The notes beneath the pieces are model-generated. The model was not told where the DNA came from and ran no database searches. It saw nothing but the letters and a program-made list of their open reading frames with translations. 64,000 bases of DNA from an uncultured Actinomycetota bacterium (GTDB lineage Bacteria > Actinomycetota > Actinomycetes > DATJPE01): the NCBI GenBank assembly GCA_963805505.1, contig CAWDUP010000004.1, positions 189,382-253,381 of the forward strand, given 5' to 3'. Below, piece after piece: positions 10,225 through 63,370 of the stretch (positions are counted from its first letter, which is position 1; each line of letters begins with the position of its first letter). The translations under genes and the position numbers were made by a program.

Positions 10225-10616
10225 TCGGAGACTTCCAGCACCACGTGGGTGGACTTGACCGACGCCACGGCGACCACGCCGGGTTCCAGCCCCAGCTCAT
10301 CGGCTGCCTCGCGGCTCATCAGCGACACGACCCGGAAGGGACCTGCCTGCATCTCGACCTGCGCCATGACGGTGTCCCGCACGACCCGGGTGACGATCCC
10401 GACGAACCGGTTCCGGGCGGAAGCGGCAGCCGTACGCCCCGGCGCGGGGGGATCGTGCAGTTCGACGGCCACCGTGGCCAGCTCTGCGCCATCGACCACC
10501 CGACGACCAGCAGAGTCATTGGTGGACTCGAGCCGACCGCCGTCGATCCAGCGACGTACCGTGTCGTCGCTGACCCCGAGCAACCTTGCTGCCTCCGATA
10601 TCCGCATCTGCGTCAT
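10221..10616 (-). CDS. molybdenum-responsive transcriptional regulator (MerR/excisionase-type HTH plus a single TOBE/Mop domain)
   Basis: HTH MRISEAARLLGVSDDTVRRWI followed by TOBE (NRFVGIVTRVVRDTVMAQVEMQAGPFRVVSLMSREAADELGLEPGVVAVASVKSTHVVLE). Its stop overlaps the modA start. Confidence 0.7.
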   Translation of the reverse strand: MTQMRISEAARLLGVSDDTVRRWIDGGRLESTNDSAGRRVVDGAELATVAVELHDPPAPGRTAAASARNRFVGIVTRVVRDTVMAQVEMQAGPFRVVSLMSREAADELGLEPGVVAVASVKSTHVVLEVSE

Positions 10617-13387: not shown

Positions 13388-14413
13388 TCACGTTGCGTCC
13401 GACCAAGTGAGGGCTATTGGCCACGCTTCCTCGGACGTAAGCCTCCGGGCCAGCCAGCGGTGACCAAGGCGCGTTCGACCTGGTCGAGGAAGGGTTCCGG
13501 ATCGGTGCGCAGCGCAAGGACAGGGACCCGGAGCACGGTACGGCCATCGAGGGTTACCTCGTTCTGGCGGAAGGCGTCCGGCAGGTGGGCAACGACATCC
13601 AGGTGCTGAACCCCGTCGATCTCCACAACTAGGCGGAAGTCGTCCCAGCAGACATCGAGGTAGACGCGCCCACTTGGGAGGCGAACCACGCGCTGGCGGG
13701 TTGGGGGTGGGAGTCCTCGGCGGCGACACATGCCGAGCGAAGTCAAGCTCCCCCAGGGACTGGGCTCCTTCGCGGACATCGGCGACGACGGCGCGCAACA
13801 GTCTCCGCCTCGGATGCCGCACCACGCGATCCAGCGCAGTCGAGATGGCCTCAGCAGTGGTGATCCGCTGCTGCACCGGTGCCACGATCAGCAATGCGGC
13901 CTCCCGGTCGGATCGCGCCCAAAGAGCCGCGAACAAAGCTGCAGGGGCAGGGCGCAACCGCGGCAGCGTGCTGACCGCGATGTCTTCTGGGCGAAGCCGC
14001 CGGGTCTCGTAGACCCGGACGCCGCGTGCTCCGCGCGGCCGACATGACTTCGGCGCGGCCACCTGGATCCGGTCGGAGCCGATGCCACGCAGGCCGTACG
14101 ACTCGAGCGCCGAAACACCTCCGAGCAACGCACCCGGGCCGACCTCGAGGACCGCCCGCCACCATTCGGTTTCAAGGCTTGGCCCCTGCGGGAGGATCAA
14201 GACAGTCTCAGGGCCGAGGCGCTTCCACCGGTCGGCGCGCACCTGTGCCGACACCTGCCAACGGGTCATGCCAGCGGCGTACAGCTGGCGCCGGTGAACG
14301 ACTCCGCCCTGATCCGCCGCCAACCGCTCGACCTCGGCCCGCCGGCGGATGCGGGCGGCAGCCGTCGCAGCCGTTGGCAGGGGACGCGCGGGGGCAAGCA
14401 CAGGCCTAGGCAT
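13388..14413 (-). pseudogene. DUF559 (endonuclease-like) / AbiEi-antitoxin-like family gene disrupted by a +1 frameshift
   Basis: The AbiEi-like N-terminal domain runs in frame 13388..14413 up to ...LGELDFAR. The DUF559 motif (MCRRRGLP...RVYLDVCWDDFRLVVEIDGVQH) continues in the overlapping ORF 13414..13779, offset by one extra nucleotide near 13732. Confidence 0.7.
13390..13443. repeat. copy A of a ~50-bp palindromic intergenic repeat (ttgcgtccgacc..ataggccac..tcggacgcaa family)
   Basis: Seen directly. It aligns with the copies at 14497-14555 (inverted) and 28048-28100, and lies between the fumA-type and DUF559 stops. Confidence 0.5.
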
Positions 14414-14496
14414 GACGCCACGCTCGAGTGGGCGAGCCCCGATCTGAACCGCCCGACGGCAACCTGAGGACGCACACCACCTGGGGACAACCTCTC

Positions 14497-14555
14497 GACT
14501 CCTTGCGTCCGAGCCAGCGTGGCCTATTGCGCACCTTGGGTCGGACGCAAAGGAT
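14497..14555. repeat. copy B (inverted) of the palindromic repeat, in the fumC 5-prime UTR
   Basis: ccttgcgtccgagccagcgtggcctattgcgcaccttgggtcggacgcaa; it ends 7 nt before the fumC RBS (AAGGA). Confidence 0.5.
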
Positions 14556-14561
14556 GACTAG

Positions 14562-15968
14562 ATGGCCGAGCAATCCTCGACACGGACCGAACGGGACTCG
14601 CTGGGTCCGGTGGAGGTCCCGGCTGACGCGCTGTGGCAGGCCCAGACCCAGCGTGCCGTCGACAACTTCCCGGTCAGCGGGCAGCCGGTCCCGTCAGCCA
14701 TCGTTCGCGCTCTTGCGCGGATCAAAGCTGCCGCCGCCACAGCGAACCTGCGACTGGGGGTCATCGACGAGGAGTCAGCCAAGGCGGTGCGAACGGCTGC
14801 CCTCGAAGTCGCCGACGGACTCCATGCCGACCAGTTCCCCGTCGATGTGTTCCAGACAGGAAGCGGCACGTCGACGAACATGAACGTCAACGAGGTGGTC
14901 GCGACTCTCGCGGGTCGGCTGGTCGGCCGCTCGATCCACCCCAACAACGTGGTCAACGCCAGCCAGTCCAGCAACGACACGTTCCCCACGGCCGTGCACG
15001 TGGCCGTGGCCGCGACCGTGGCCGACGAGCTCGTCCCTGCACTGGACGCCCTGGCCGCGCGACTTCGGGAGCGCGCCGACGAGTACGTCGATCTGGTCAA
15101 GGCCGGTCGCACCCACCTCATGGATGCCACGCCGATCACCTTCGGTCAGGAGCTCGGCGCCTGGGCGAGCCAGGTCGAGCTGGGCCGTGATCGAATCCTC
15201 GGCTCGCTCCCGCGACTGTGCTCGCTGCCCCTGGGCGGCACTGCTGTCGGCTCCGGGCTGAACGCGCCCGAGGGCTTCGCAGCTGCCGTGATCGCCGAGC
15301 TGGCGGAGGCGTACGGGCTTCCGCTGGTCGAAGCCACCGACCACTTCGAAGCGCAGGCGAGTCGAGACTCACTCGTGGAGATGTCTGGGCAGGTGCGCGT
15401 TGTGGCTGTGTCGCTCACCAAGATCTGCAACGACCTGAGGTGGCTCGGTTCTGGACCAGCGACCGGGCTGCACGAGATCCAGCTGGCAGATCTCCAACCC
15501 GGGTCATCGATCATGCCGGGCAAGGTCAATCCCGTGGTGCCGGAGGCGGTCCTCCAGGTGTGTACCCAGGTGGTCGGCAACGATGCCGCAGTCGCGTGGG
15601 CTGGCGCCTCCGGGTCCTTCCAGCTCAACGTGCAGATCCCGGTCATGGCCCGCAACCTCATGGAGTCGGCTCAGTTGCTCGCGTCGGCCGTACGGCTGCT
15701 GCAGGGCGCCATCTCCACGCTGCGGGCCAACGAGCAGGTGATGCGCTCCTACGCGGAGGCTTCCTCCGCGGTCGTGACCGCGCTCAACCGGCTGTTGGGC
15801 TATGACCTGGCAGCCGAGATCGCCAAACAGGCCCAGGTCGAACGGCGCGCCGTTCGCGACATCATCGTCGAGCGCGGACTGATCGCCGACGGTACGGTCA
15901 GCGAGGCCGAGGTGGATGCCGCACTCGATGTCCTTGCCATGACCGGCGCCAAACGCAACAACGGGTGA
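14562..15968 (+). CDS. fumC: class II fumarate hydratase
   Basis: 468 aa with the lyase signature [11 protein letters not shown], and it aligns along its length with FumC/aspartase-family proteins. Confidence 0.95.
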
Positions 15969-19948: not shown

Positions 19949-20626
19949 TCAGTACCAGCCCTTGGCCAGGAAGGCCGACCACGCACCGCACGGCGTGCCG
20001 TAGCGCTGGCCGACATAGTTCAGGCCCCAGGTGATCTGAGTCTTCGGATTGGTCGCCCAGTCCGACCCAGCCGACGCCATCTTGGATCCGGGCAGCGCCT
20101 GCGGGATTCCGTAGGCACCAGAAGAGTTTGCCGCCCGCTGCGACCAGCCGGACTCACGGGTCCACAGCTTGTCTAGGCAGACGAACTGCGCGTCACCCCA
20201 ACCTCGTGCAGCCGCCATCTGCTTGCCCAGGGCACGATTCGTGCCGGGGCGTACGGCTGCCGCTGCACGTGTCGCGCGTTCCGCAGCGGCCTTCCTGGCG
20301 GCCGCTGCCCGAGCCGCCTCGCGCTTCTCGGCGCGCAACTTGGCTGCCTTCTTCTTGGCCGCCTTCTTCTTGGCCGCCTTCACCTTGGCCACGTGCTTCG
20401 CCTTGGCGATGGCCAACCGGTGGTCAGCGGCGGCGGCCGTGCGAGCTGCTGCCAGGTTCACCATCTCCGGCGCCACCGCGGGGCCGGTCACCGTCGGGCG
20501 GTCGACGGACCCGAAGGCCGTGGTCGTGACCCCGAGCGTGGTGGCGCCGACGAGCATGGCCACAACCACGCTGAAGCGTCGGGTAGCGGTGGACGAACGG
20601 ATCCGCCGCATCGAGATGCGGTACAT
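19949..20626 (-). CDS. secreted protein with Lys/Ala-rich repeats and a C-terminal Apf-like / lytic-transglycosylase-like domain
   Basis: ATG at 20626 with an upstream RBS, then a signal peptide and KKAAK repeats. The C-terminus (GWGDAQFVCLDKLWTRESGWSQRAANSSGAYGIPQALPGS...CGAWSAFLAKGWY) resembles the Apf C-terminal domain. Confidence 0.7.
   Translation of the reverse strand: MYRISMRRIRSSTATRRFSVVVAMLVGATTLGVTTTAFGSVDRPTVTGPAVAPEMVNLAAARTAAAADHRLAIAKAKHVAKVKAAKKKAAKKKAAKLRAEKREAARAAAARKAAAERATRAAAAVRPGTNRALGKQMAAARGWGDAQFVCLDKLWTRESGWSQRAANSSGAYGIPQALPGSKMASAGSDWATNPKTQITWGLNYVGQRYGTPCGAWSAFLAKGWY
20341..20385. repeat. 3 x 15-bp tandem repeat (ggcYgccttcWYctt) inside the Apf-like gene, encoding AAKKK repeats
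   Basis: Seen directly in the nucleotide sequence. Confidence 0.5.
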
Positions 20627-27539: not shown

Positions 27540-28043
27540 GTGACCTGGGATGCTGGCGGCGTGGGATACGCCGAGGCCGTCGCTCGCCTGGGCCACCAAC
27601 GTTGGTTTGCCAGTCTCGGTCGGGCCGTTGTCCCGCTCGACCGTGCCGTTTACCGAGCCACCCAGGGTCGCTGGACCCTGATCGGCCGCGGCGTCGTCCC
27701 TCAGCTCATCCTCACCACGACTGGGCGGCGCTCCGGGCAGCCGCGGCCTGTCCCCTTGCTGTACGCCCGGGACGGCGAAGCCTTCGTCGTGGTCGCCTCC
27801 AACTGGGGCCAGCGGGAGCATCCCGCCTGGTCGGCCAACTTGATCAGCAACCCACTCGCCAGCATCACCCTGGACCACGACCCGATCCCGGTGCGGGCGA
27901 CATTGGCCGAGGGAGAGGAACGGGAGCGACTTTGGCCGCTCCTGACCTCGGTCTGGCCGGCCTACGACACCTATGCCGCAAGATCCGGCAGGGATCTTCG
28001 CGTCTTCCGGCTACGACCAGTTCCAAGGCCGACCGCTGAGTGA
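27540..28043 (+). CDS. deazaflavin (F420)-dependent nitroreductase family protein (Ddn-like)
   Basis: Ddn-like motifs ([46 protein letters not shown]). GTG start. Confidence 0.8.
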
Positions 28044-28047
28044 TCAC

Positions 28048-28100
28048 TGACCTTGCGTCCGACCAAGTGCGCCGTATAGGCCACCATCGGTCGGACGCAA
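28048..28100. repeat. copy C of the palindromic repeat (perfect 12-bp arms ttgcgtccgacc / ggtcggacgcaa, 24-nt spacer)
   Basis: Seen directly, between the nitroreductase stop and the arfB start. Confidence 0.5.
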
Positions 28101-28121
28101 CGGATCCGGCATGCTTTTCCC

Positions 28122-28550
28122 GTGCCGGGTCCGTTGCGCGTCCGTTCGGCGGTGATTCCCGAAGGCGAGCTGTCATGGCGCTTCTCGAGATCCTCGGGAC
28201 CGGGTGGGCAAAGCGTGAACACCACGGACTCGCGGGTTGAGCTCTCCTACGATCTGGCGGCGTCCTCGGCATTCGGCCCCTCACTCAAGGGTCGGGCTCT
28301 GGAGCGCTTGGCTGGTCGCCTTGTCGACGGCACGATCACCGTGACGGCATCCGAGCACCGCAGCCAGTTGCAGAACCGGGAGGCCGCCGAGCGCCGACTG
28401 GTCTCCCTGCTGCTCGAAGCCACGGCTCCGCCTCCCCGTCGCCGCCGTCCCACCAAGCCCTCCAAGGCGTCGACCGAGCGCCGGATCGCGAGCAAGAAGA
28501 AGCGCGGAGAGACCAAACGCCTTCGACGCAGCACCACCGACGGTCAGTAA
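28122..28550 (+). CDS. arfB: alternative ribosome-rescue factor ArfB (peptidyl-tRNA hydrolase, GGQ)
   Basis: GPGGQSVNTTDSRVEL GGQ motif and a basic C-terminal tail (KKKRGETKRLRR). GTG start. Confidence 0.85.
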   Translation: MPGPLRVRSAVIPEGELSWRFSRSSGPGGQSVNTTDSRVELSYDLAASSAFGPSLKGRALERLAGRLVDGTITVTASEHRSQLQNREAAERRLVSLLLEATAPPPRRRRPTKPSKASTERRIASKKKRGETKRLRRSTTDGQ

Positions 28551-53342: not shown

Positions 53343-54701
53343 TCAACCGGAGAGCTCCGCGCCAAGCAGCCGCGCAGCCGCGTCGGGGTGATCCGTCGAC
53401 AGCAGACCGGCCGCCGCCAGCACATAGGACCCATCCACGACCACCCGCGCACGCTCAGGTAGCTTCCAGCCGCCGGCATGGTCGCGCAGGGCCGGACCTA
53501 GGACTGACTCGATGGCAGCCGCACCACCGTGCCGGAGCACGCCGCCTGACCCAACGACCATCGTGACCGAGCGAAGGTCCTTGCCCGGACGCCGTGGGTC
53601 GTCGGGCGCCACGGCGGCGGTTGGTCGAGCGTGTCTGCGCAGGGCGATGGTGGTAGCCAGCCGCGCCAACGTCAGGTCATCGCGCCGCTCGGCGGCTCCG
53701 GTCGGCAACCAGCCTGGGTCGGCCGCTCGAGCCTCGGCGCCGGCCTCGAGCCGATCCCCAGCTGCAAGCAGCCGCTCGGTCTCGGCTGCCTCCACGACAC
53801 CTGGGGCGTTCCATCGCACACCGAGATCGCCCTCGACCGTGCGTTCGCGCCACATCATCTCGACCACCTCGCGATGGAGAGCAGCGTCCTCGGGGTCCGG
53901 CGTCACAACCGAGTAGACATCGGTCGTGGCTCCCCCGACATCCACCACCAGCACGTCCCCGGCGCCGGGCACCCCCTCCGAACCGTCGGACAGCAGCTCG
54001 ACGCCGGACAGAACGGCGTCCGGCGTGGCCGCTCGGACGAGGCGACGAAACTCCTCCCCCTTCGACATTCCTTTCCCGCCGATCACGTGGCTGATGAACA
54101 TCTCGCGGATCGCCGCGCGAGCCGGGCTGGGGTCGAGAACGCCGATGCGCGGCAGGACGTTCGCCGTCGGCAGCGACGTACGCCCCGCGGCGTCGAGGAT
54201 CGAGCAGACCTCATCCGTGGCCGCTGCGTTCCCTGCCACCACGACCGGAGCAGAGATCTTCCCGGCAGCGAGGGCCGCGGCATTGTGGAGCAGGACCTCA
54301 GCGTTGCCTCCGTCCGTGCCACCTACGAGCAGGACCACGTCTGGTTCGGCGGCACGCAGGGCCGTGATCCCCCGCTTGTCCATCGGCCCAGAAGACACGT
54401 GGACGACGCGCGCCCCAGCCGACACACCTACTCGGGCACCAGCCTCGGCCGTGACCAGCCGCTCGTAACCCACGACGGCGAGCCGGAGTCCCCCGCCAGC
54501 CGAGGAGCAGACCCGCACGTGGTCGGCGACATCCCCGGCGCTCTGCTCGGCAGCCGTACGCACGGCGGCAAGGCCATCGAGGACGTCGGTGTTGATCGTC
54601 GTCGGATGCGTCGCCGTGGCCAACAACCGCCCGGAGGGCACCTCGATGAGAGCGCCCTTGGTGAAGGTTGATCCGACATCGACGCACAGGATGCGCGTCA
54701 C
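53343..54701 (-). CDS. GlmL/MutL-like ASKHA-fold protein (glutamate mutase L family)
   Basis: N-terminal RILCVDVGSTFTKGALIE phosphate-1 motif and DVGGATTD phosphate-2 motif. Confidence 0.65.
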   Translation of the reverse strand: MTRILCVDVGSTFTKGALIEVPSGRLLATATHPTTINTDVLDGLAAVRTAAEQSAGDVADHVRVCSSAGGGLRLAVVGYERLVTAEAGARVGVSAGARVVHVSSGPMDKRGITALRAAEPDVVLLVGGTDGGNAEVLLHNAAALAAGKISAPVVVAGNAAATDEVCSILDAAGRTSLPTANVLPRIGVLDPSPARAAIREMFISHVIGGKGMSKGEEFRRLVRAATPDAVLSGVELLSDGSEGVPGAGDVLVVDVGGATTDVYSVVTPDPEDAALHREVVEMMWRERTVEGDLGVRWNAPGVVEAAETERLLAAGDRLEAGAEARAADPGWLPTGAAERRDDLTLARLATTIALRRHARPTAAVAPDDPRRPGKDLRSVTMVVGSGGVLRHGGAAAIESVLGPALRDHAGGWKLPERARVVVDGSYVLAAAGLLSTDHPDAAARLLGAELSG

Positions 54702-63297: not shown

Positions 63298-63370
63298 TGC
63301 CCCCGGTGGGGATCGAACCCACACTGGATCCCTTTTAAGGGGACTGCCTCTGCCGTTGGGCTACGGGGGC
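63298..63370 (-). tRNA. tRNA gene, 73 nt, no encoded CCA; the hand fold gives anticodon UAA with a 5-nt variable loop, so the isotype is uncertain
   Basis: Acceptor GCCCCCG/CGGGGGC, U8, A14, GG in the D loop, T-loop TTCGATC, anticodon stem GUCCC/GGGAU and loop CUUAAAA. Confidence 0.65.

Follow-up and report, generated by a model that had tools for sequence, protein, structure and literature searches.

We found that three palindromes of about 48 nt in the window (the whole 64-kb stretch of DNA analysed here) are real copies of a repeat family that occurs in many genera of Actinomycetes. Two of these copies, A and B, bracket a gene for a protein with a predicted AbiEi-like winged-helix module and a DUF559 (Vsr-like) nuclease domain, and the homologs of this gene are mostly bracketed by their own matching palindromes. 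The most likely reading, which we hold with moderate confidence, is a REP-like element family with a cognate, non-HUH DNA-binding nuclease gene in a REPtron-like arrangement, although binding and mobilisation are inferred and have not been shown for any member. The window has a GC content of 67.6% and lies on a 504-kb contig, and its closest relatives are MAG contigs such as ENA ERZ25039462 contig_793. The positions of the features are listed in Table 1.

Table 1. Positions of the palindromic elements and associated features in the window and in other loci
Sequence	Position	Strand	Feature	Remarks
Window	13393-13441	+	Copy A	Between the class I fumarase stop (13383) and the 3' end of the DUF559 gene on the minus strand; supplies the last 9 codons of that gene and its TAG stop (13414-13416, in the loop); 52.6 bits, E 2.8e-13
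Window	14503-14550	-	Copy B	Opposite orientation to A and C; 89 nt upstream of the DUF559 ATG (14413, minus strand); directly abuts the fumC Shine-Dalgarno; 53.9 bits
Window	28053-28100	+	Copy C	Solo copy with perfect 12-bp arms; begins 10 nt after the stop of the F420H2-dependent quinone reductase gene (27540-28043) and ends 21 nt before the arfB GTG start (28122); 47.5 bits, E 8.5e-12
Window	13414-14413	-	AbiEi-like/DUF559 gene	C-terminal DUF559-like part in another frame (13414-13779); one extra base near 13732
Window	14482-14490	-	TTGTCCCCA	Version of the TTGTCCACAG motif in the window
Window	14551-14554	+	fumC Shine-Dalgarno AGGA	7 nt before the ATG at 14562
Window	28096-28138		Nearly perfect 17-bp hairpin (GCAACGGATCCGGCATG...CGTGCCGGGTCCGTTGC)	Starts inside the last bases of the right arm of copy C and covers the putative arfB GTG start
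Window	28134-28144		TTGCGCGTCCG	Left-arm-like sequence
Window	10422-10446, 20240-20264 (inverted), 54548-54561		CGGCAGCCGTACGC(CCCGGC)	Shared stretch of 14-24 nt
Window	63298-63370	-	tRNA gene	Only Rfam match in the window
L121	8928-8975		Element orthologous to copy B	Upstream of fumC
L121	8928-10957		Cassette-like layout	fumC, element, a 218-aa gene with no Pfam hit, element, the DUF559 gene, element, class I fumarase
L121	20294-20341 and 20315-20509		xseB ending inside an element	Tail VRPTEGAQ followed by the stop
L163	2381 and 6939		GGTATGCCGCG...CGCGGCATACC palindrome family	
L178	1157-1190		GGTATGCCGCG...CGCGGCATACC palindrome family	
L189	6276		GGTATGCCGCG...CGCGGCATACC palindrome family	

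The three copies align over about 50 nt with 75-80% identity over 48-51 nt, and they share the arms TTGCGTCCGACC / GGTCGGACGCAA and the asymmetric core ATAGGCCAC, by which the orientation of copy B was judged. The exact 12-mer TTGCGTCCGACC occurs 4 times and a 1-mismatch version once, all inside the three elements, whereas about 0.01 exact hits are expected in 128 kb of both strands. However, at 2 mismatches the 12-mer alone is at chance level (9 found, 13 expected), so the signal lies in the exact paired arms, and the arm search with 2 mismatches suggested by the first-pass annotation would have been noisy. The family is the top direct and inverted repeat family of the window. In addition, a covariance model built from 55 family members finds only these three sites in the window (E 1e-9 to 1e-13; next best E 0.1). 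RNA folds of copies B and C have z-scores of -4.6 to -5.8 on both strands, while copy A folds well on the + strand only (z -2.9; 0.0 on the minus strand). A chance resemblance between GC-rich palindromes is therefore refuted. Another shared stretch in three places of the window, CGGCAGCCGTACGC(CCCGGC), shows no similarity beyond itself and is probably a coding coincidence.

The first-pass annotation had proposed a REP-like or MITE-like intergenic repeat family and, among other options, a recognition site of the neighbouring DUF559 protein. The REP-like reading and the DUF559 suggestion are supported by comparative evidence, but the MITE label is not supported. Furthermore, some details need correction. 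The annotated ranges were a few bases wider than ours. Copy C was called a perfect hairpin, but its inner stem is imperfect. Copy A was placed in a shared 3' region, but the DUF559 reading frame runs into it and ends at the TAG in its loop. Copy B was said to end 7 nt before the fumC ribosome-binding site, but the 7-nt gap is between the Shine-Dalgarno and the ATG.

To find the family elsewhere, one genome per species was scanned with TTGCGTCCG-N25-40-CGGACGCAA. Of 126 matches, 61 were exactly 48 nt long, and these came overwhelmingly from Actinomycetes, including Kribbella, Knoellia, Lapillicoccus, Pedococcus and Cellulomonas, and Sporichthyaceae, Frankiales and Motilibacteraceae MAGs. Matches of other lengths in unrelated phyla lack an inner hairpin and look like chance. 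Several copies per genome occur in Knoellia flava, Kribbella alba and the Sporichthyaceae MAGs, although no full-genome count was made. The invariant core is CGTCCGA...TCGGACG, usually with TTGCGTCCG arms, and the loop is usually CTATAG. The inner stem is lineage-specific, for instance ACCAAG... in the window and in L121 (a syntenic MAG contig whose proteins are 50-85% identical to those of the window), AAGAAC... in Kribbella and GCAAGGTGACGG... in Knoellia. Tandem pairs or triplets with a 62-74-nt period also occur.

The inner stem varies but stays complementary. In the 61 unfiltered 48-nt elements every position pairs with its mirror position, and position 10/39 is Watson-Crick in 60 of 61 while using all four bases. 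In an alignment of 55 sequences, 86% of cells are paired, against 71% in shuffles (0 of 500 shuffles reach this) and 35-42% when partners are slid, and 189 cells show double-sided changes against 74 expected. However, it should be noted that this alignment was pre-filtered for at least 70% inner pairing, and the exact-arm scan makes arm conservation among those copies circular. No Rfam family matches the element: at the gathering score only a tRNA is found in the whole window, and around the copies the E-value mode gives only far sub-threshold miRNA-like hairpin matches. Scans for sigma-70 promoters and U-tract terminators found nothing at the copies. In addition, a scan of viral contigs found only arrays of 4-5 direct and inverted copies of the 9-mer TTGCGTCCG, spaced 2-5 nt apart, in contigs of about 57% GC. 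These look like iterons or operators, form no hairpin (inner pairing 3-5 of 12), and we judge them unrelated.

The location of the copies was examined with a crude GC3-based gene call, in which start codons are over-extended and only stop-side distances are trusted. We found that 59 of 61 classifiable copies are intergenic, with 30 between co-directional genes, 17 between convergent genes and 12 between divergent genes, and most lie within about 40 nt after a stop codon. Roughly a tenth overlap the 3' end of a gene. The loop TAG is in frame with TTG-CGT-CCG, and a gene reading in from either side in that frame therefore ends as L/V-R-P-x-x-x-x-x-stop, as in the DUF559 genes and in xseB of L121. 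The xseB of the window has a different, longer tail and no element, so the element rewrites the C-termini of neighbouring genes. Other frames read straight through and give tails such as ...TSEE...SSSDV.... On the transcribed strand of the 30 co-directional copies there are 23 G:U and 33 A:C mispairs, and the model scores both strands almost equally. Thus, there is no sign of selection on one RNA strand, which fits a DNA-level palindrome. The 14 nt on the 5' side of 60 solo elements are C-rich and the 14 nt on the 3' side are G-rich at every position, which could be a target preference or a loosely paired extension. Only positions 1-2 outside the arms tend to pair, and no direct target-site duplication is visible.

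Copies are present or absent between related genomes. L121 has five copies in 21 kb, and two of them lie in intergenic regions where the window has none, namely between DUF4245 and xseB, and between an Rv1265-like gene and HlyIII, where the window has only 6 nt between the two stop codons. Conversely, copy B is orthologous in both genomes, and in each the 3' flank of the element abuts or overlaps the fumC Shine-Dalgarno (GCAAAGGATG in the window and GCAAGGATGG in L121). In the window the Shine-Dalgarno is base-paired in the extended stem of copy B in the predicted RNA fold, and fumC translation may be gated by this hairpin. Meanwhile, the second hairpin next to copy C could gate arfB translation or be the remnant of a tandem copy. 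A left-arm-like sequence follows at 28134-28144. The layout of L121 around the DUF559 gene is cassette-like, and the window lacks its 218-aa gene.

The 341-aa minus-strand ORF between copies A and B has no Pfam hit because it is frameshifted. The joined 332-aa protein is 65% identical across the junction to P0004, an intact 311-aa homolog, and it keeps every family-invariant residue. A recent pseudogene and an assembly indel are both possible. Family members match Pfam DUF559 (PF04480; 21 of 40), AbiEi_4 (7 of 40) and MTES_1575 (4 of 40), and P0004 scores 26.7 bits against a DUF559 cutoff of 20.6. D230, E241, H247 and D256 are invariant or nearly so in the family, and D243 of the EIDG motif is seen in 5 of the 6 aligned sequences, including the window protein. 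An AlphaFold model of P0004 has pLDDT 91. In fold comparison, the N-terminal two-thirds of the protein matches AbiEi and M. tuberculosis Rv2827c, and the nuclease domain resembles the Vsr-like homing endonuclease I-Bth0305I. A profile search finds 799 cluster representatives at E<=1e-30 and 6,842 at E<=1e-10, whereas a tblastn search of the protein against plasmids gave no match.

The link between gene and palindrome was found from both directions. Starting from the element, three of about 75 actinobacterial seed loci (L047, L066 and L005) contain a DUF559 homolog directly next to the element. In L047 two copies bracket the gene, and the stop codon is the loop TAG, read in the same frame as in the window. 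Starting from the protein, both ends of the gene carry elements in loci L121 and L123; in L121/L122 and Kribbella sp. NBC_00709 these lie about 120-160 nt upstream of the start codon and across the stop codon. Furthermore, a metagenome scan with an alignment of 40 homologs returned 80 loci at 44-59% identity. In 59 of 75 loci with enough flank, the region about 100-290 nt upstream of the gene and the region at or just after the stop share a 40-60-nt sequence that is itself a palindrome, while the same test on 206 other genes in the same loci gives one hit. Strong palindromes number 66 within 300 nt of the gene ends and 16 in all remaining sequence. Because the covariance model detects only the CGTCCG arm type, a general palindrome finder and a flank-to-flank alignment were used for the other types. 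Among named isolates, Antricoccus suffuscus has two flanking copies plus a nearly identical solo copy 4.6 kb away, and Sporichthya brevicatena and Kribbella rubisoli show the same bracketing. However, Phytoactinopolyspora mesophila showed no flanking palindrome at our threshold, and the relative orientation of the two flanking copies is not consistent (inverted in the window, direct in L047).

The arms are not all of the window type. They include GACGTCATACGA (the commonest), GACGTCATGGCG, CGTCATGCAGTTC, GGTGGAGGTAT, TCGATGTATT, GATGTGATCGATCG and GACAGACAC. The arm types (CGTCCG, CGTCATAC, CGTCATGG, GGTGTC, GATGT and GGAGGTAT) map onto separate clades of the protein tree. The gene neighbourhood differs between orders, but the gene is syntenic near fumC in the window, L121 and two Kribbella genomes. 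Shared ancestry therefore explains part of the bracketing, and the co-divergence of arms and protein could simply reflect vertical descent of the whole locus. For the commonest arm type (CGTCATACGA), no solo copies were seen away from the gene in the limited flanks available, and proliferation may be confined to some lineages. Meanwhile, another palindrome family, GGTATGCCGCG...CGCGGCATACC, recurs in loci whose DUF559 gene is flanked by GGAGGTAT-type arms, and these may be the solo copies of that lineage. In addition, a TTGTCCACAG motif is conserved between the upstream palindrome and the start codon of these genes, for instance in L047, L123, L124, L205 (P. mesophila) and L206. A perfect TTGTCCACA is carried by 19 of 71 loci and the core TCCACAG is nearly universal, while the looser pattern TTGTCCNCN is in 22 of 71 loci, against about 1.3 expected by chance. 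The motif is absent next to solo copies.

In the reading that we favour, the gene is bracketed by one copy about 90-200 nt upstream of the start codon and by another that overlaps the stop codon or lies within about 20 nt after it. We infer that the winged-helix module recognises the conserved arm duplex, which has the same sequence whether the DNA is linear or extruded as a hairpin, that the upstream copy serves as the operator of the gene, as AbiEi appears to do with its inverted repeats, and that the nuclease domain nicks or cuts at the element, so that copies are maintained, homogenised or spread. Solo copies would then be secondarily used, or merely tolerated, as RNA hairpins. However, a hydrolytic PD-(D/E)XK/Vsr-type nuclease cannot by itself rejoin DNA, so replicative spread needs host repair or another factor, and this is the weakest link in the model. 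A further possibility, which we put forward only tentatively, is that this is a second, independent kind of REPtron, in which a large actinobacterial gene family would be a domesticated site-specific nuclease that generates, homogenises or spreads its own palindromes through nicking and host repair, with arm sequence and protein specificity co-evolving. That would give DUF559 a function and explain an uncatalogued class of actinobacterial repeats.

Other readings are less likely. The palindromes could be operator sites of an AbiEi-like transcription factor that represses its own gene and regulates neighbours such as fumC and arfB, without any mobility. The fold match to AbiEi, which probably autoregulates by binding inverted repeats in its promoter, the consistent distance of the upstream copy from the start codon and the conserved position of copy B upstream of fumC in two genera are in favour of this reading. 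Nevertheless, most solo copies lie just after stop codons rather than in promoters, with only 12 of 59 in divergent regions, and a copy also overlaps the stop codon of the gene itself. In addition, a dimeric operator does not require a variable inner segment to stay self-complementary, tandem arrays of 2-3 copies occur, copies are gained or lost between relatives, and the conserved nuclease domain is left unexplained. It is also doubtful that the gene is a selfish, homing-type nuclease gene that settles next to or between pre-existing palindromes, for example in the spacer of a tandem pair, while the palindromes spread or arise by some unrelated process. The resemblance to I-Bth0305I, the tandem pairs in several genomes and the different neighbourhoods between orders would suit it. 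However, the reading frame into the downstream element is conserved between distant homologs, arm type tracks the protein clades, bracketing also holds for arm types with no detected solo copies, the gene is syntenic across genera near fumC, and no plasmid hit was found.

A purely RNA-level role, as U-tract-less terminators, 3'-end stabilisers or translational attenuators selected at each site and only incidentally associated with the DUF559 gene, is still less likely. The stable hairpins, their position mostly after stop codons and the pairing of the fumC Shine-Dalgarno, which is conserved in L121, are consistent with it, and many actinobacterial terminators appear to lack U-tracts. On the other hand, there is no G:U over A:C preference, both strands score about equally, and no T-run or Rfam family was found. 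A 7-9-nt arm sequence is conserved across families of Actinomycetes, which a generic hairpin does not need, and the excess of bracketing over control genes is not incidental. RNA stability or attenuation is not excluded for individual copies, but it is not the family-wide signature.

In the papers searched, DUF559 is never linked to palindromic repeats, no comparable repeat-protein pair is described in Actinobacteria, and a search for the arm sequences returned only primers and unrelated hits. If the link is functional, a large domain-of-unknown-function family gains a testable substrate that can be read straight from each genome, and a palindrome-plus-cognate-gene arrangement would have arisen with a non-HUH protein. 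In addition, gene 3' ends rewritten by the element could be predicted by annotators.

With regard to known systems, the elements resemble MITEs in being small, non-coding, palindromic overall, intergenic, and present or absent between relatives. However, the putative parent unit carries a complete palindrome at each end rather than half-palindromes (TIRs), and neither a direct target-site duplication nor a transposase was found. The elements also differ from intrinsic terminators, as the sequences after the stems are G-rich. In comparison with integron attC sites, the arms read TTGCG...CGCAA, so the AAC/GTT polarity is reversed, and no integrase appears in the annotated neighbourhoods. In comparison with the AbiE type IV toxin-antitoxin system and Rv2827c, no AbiEii (DUF1814) toxin gene is adjacent in any annotated locus, the protein carries a C-terminal nuclease-like domain instead, and the repeat also occurs at the 3' end of the gene and as solo copies. 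Unlike I-Bth0305I and Vsr, the gene is not inside an intron or intein, and its target and activity are unknown. The CGTC-tagged REPs (Di Nocera et al. 2013, PMC3733652) are palindromic repeats with a CGTC motif near the stem base and are reported to lack a dedicated transposase. In that survey the CGTC is an unpaired terminal tag, the stems are 8-9 bp and no Actinobacteria are mentioned in the text, whereas here CGTC is inside the paired arm, and we treat the resemblance as possibly coincidental.

The REP/REPIN elements with their RAYT gene are well documented in Proteobacteria. Here the host is Actinomycetes, the stem is much longer (about 22-26 bp against 8-15 bp), and no conserved unpaired GTAG or CGTC tag was seen in 55 copies with flanks. 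In addition, no Y1 HUH transposase family appears in any annotated neighbourhood, and no cleavage or joining chemistry is known for the flanked protein. Meanwhile, both are short palindromic extragenic repeats in many copies per genome, mostly after genes and sometimes in tandem clusters, with lineage-specific sequence. Furthermore, in both a largely vertically inherited gene is itself flanked by two cognate copies, and the repeat sequence varies with the protein lineage.
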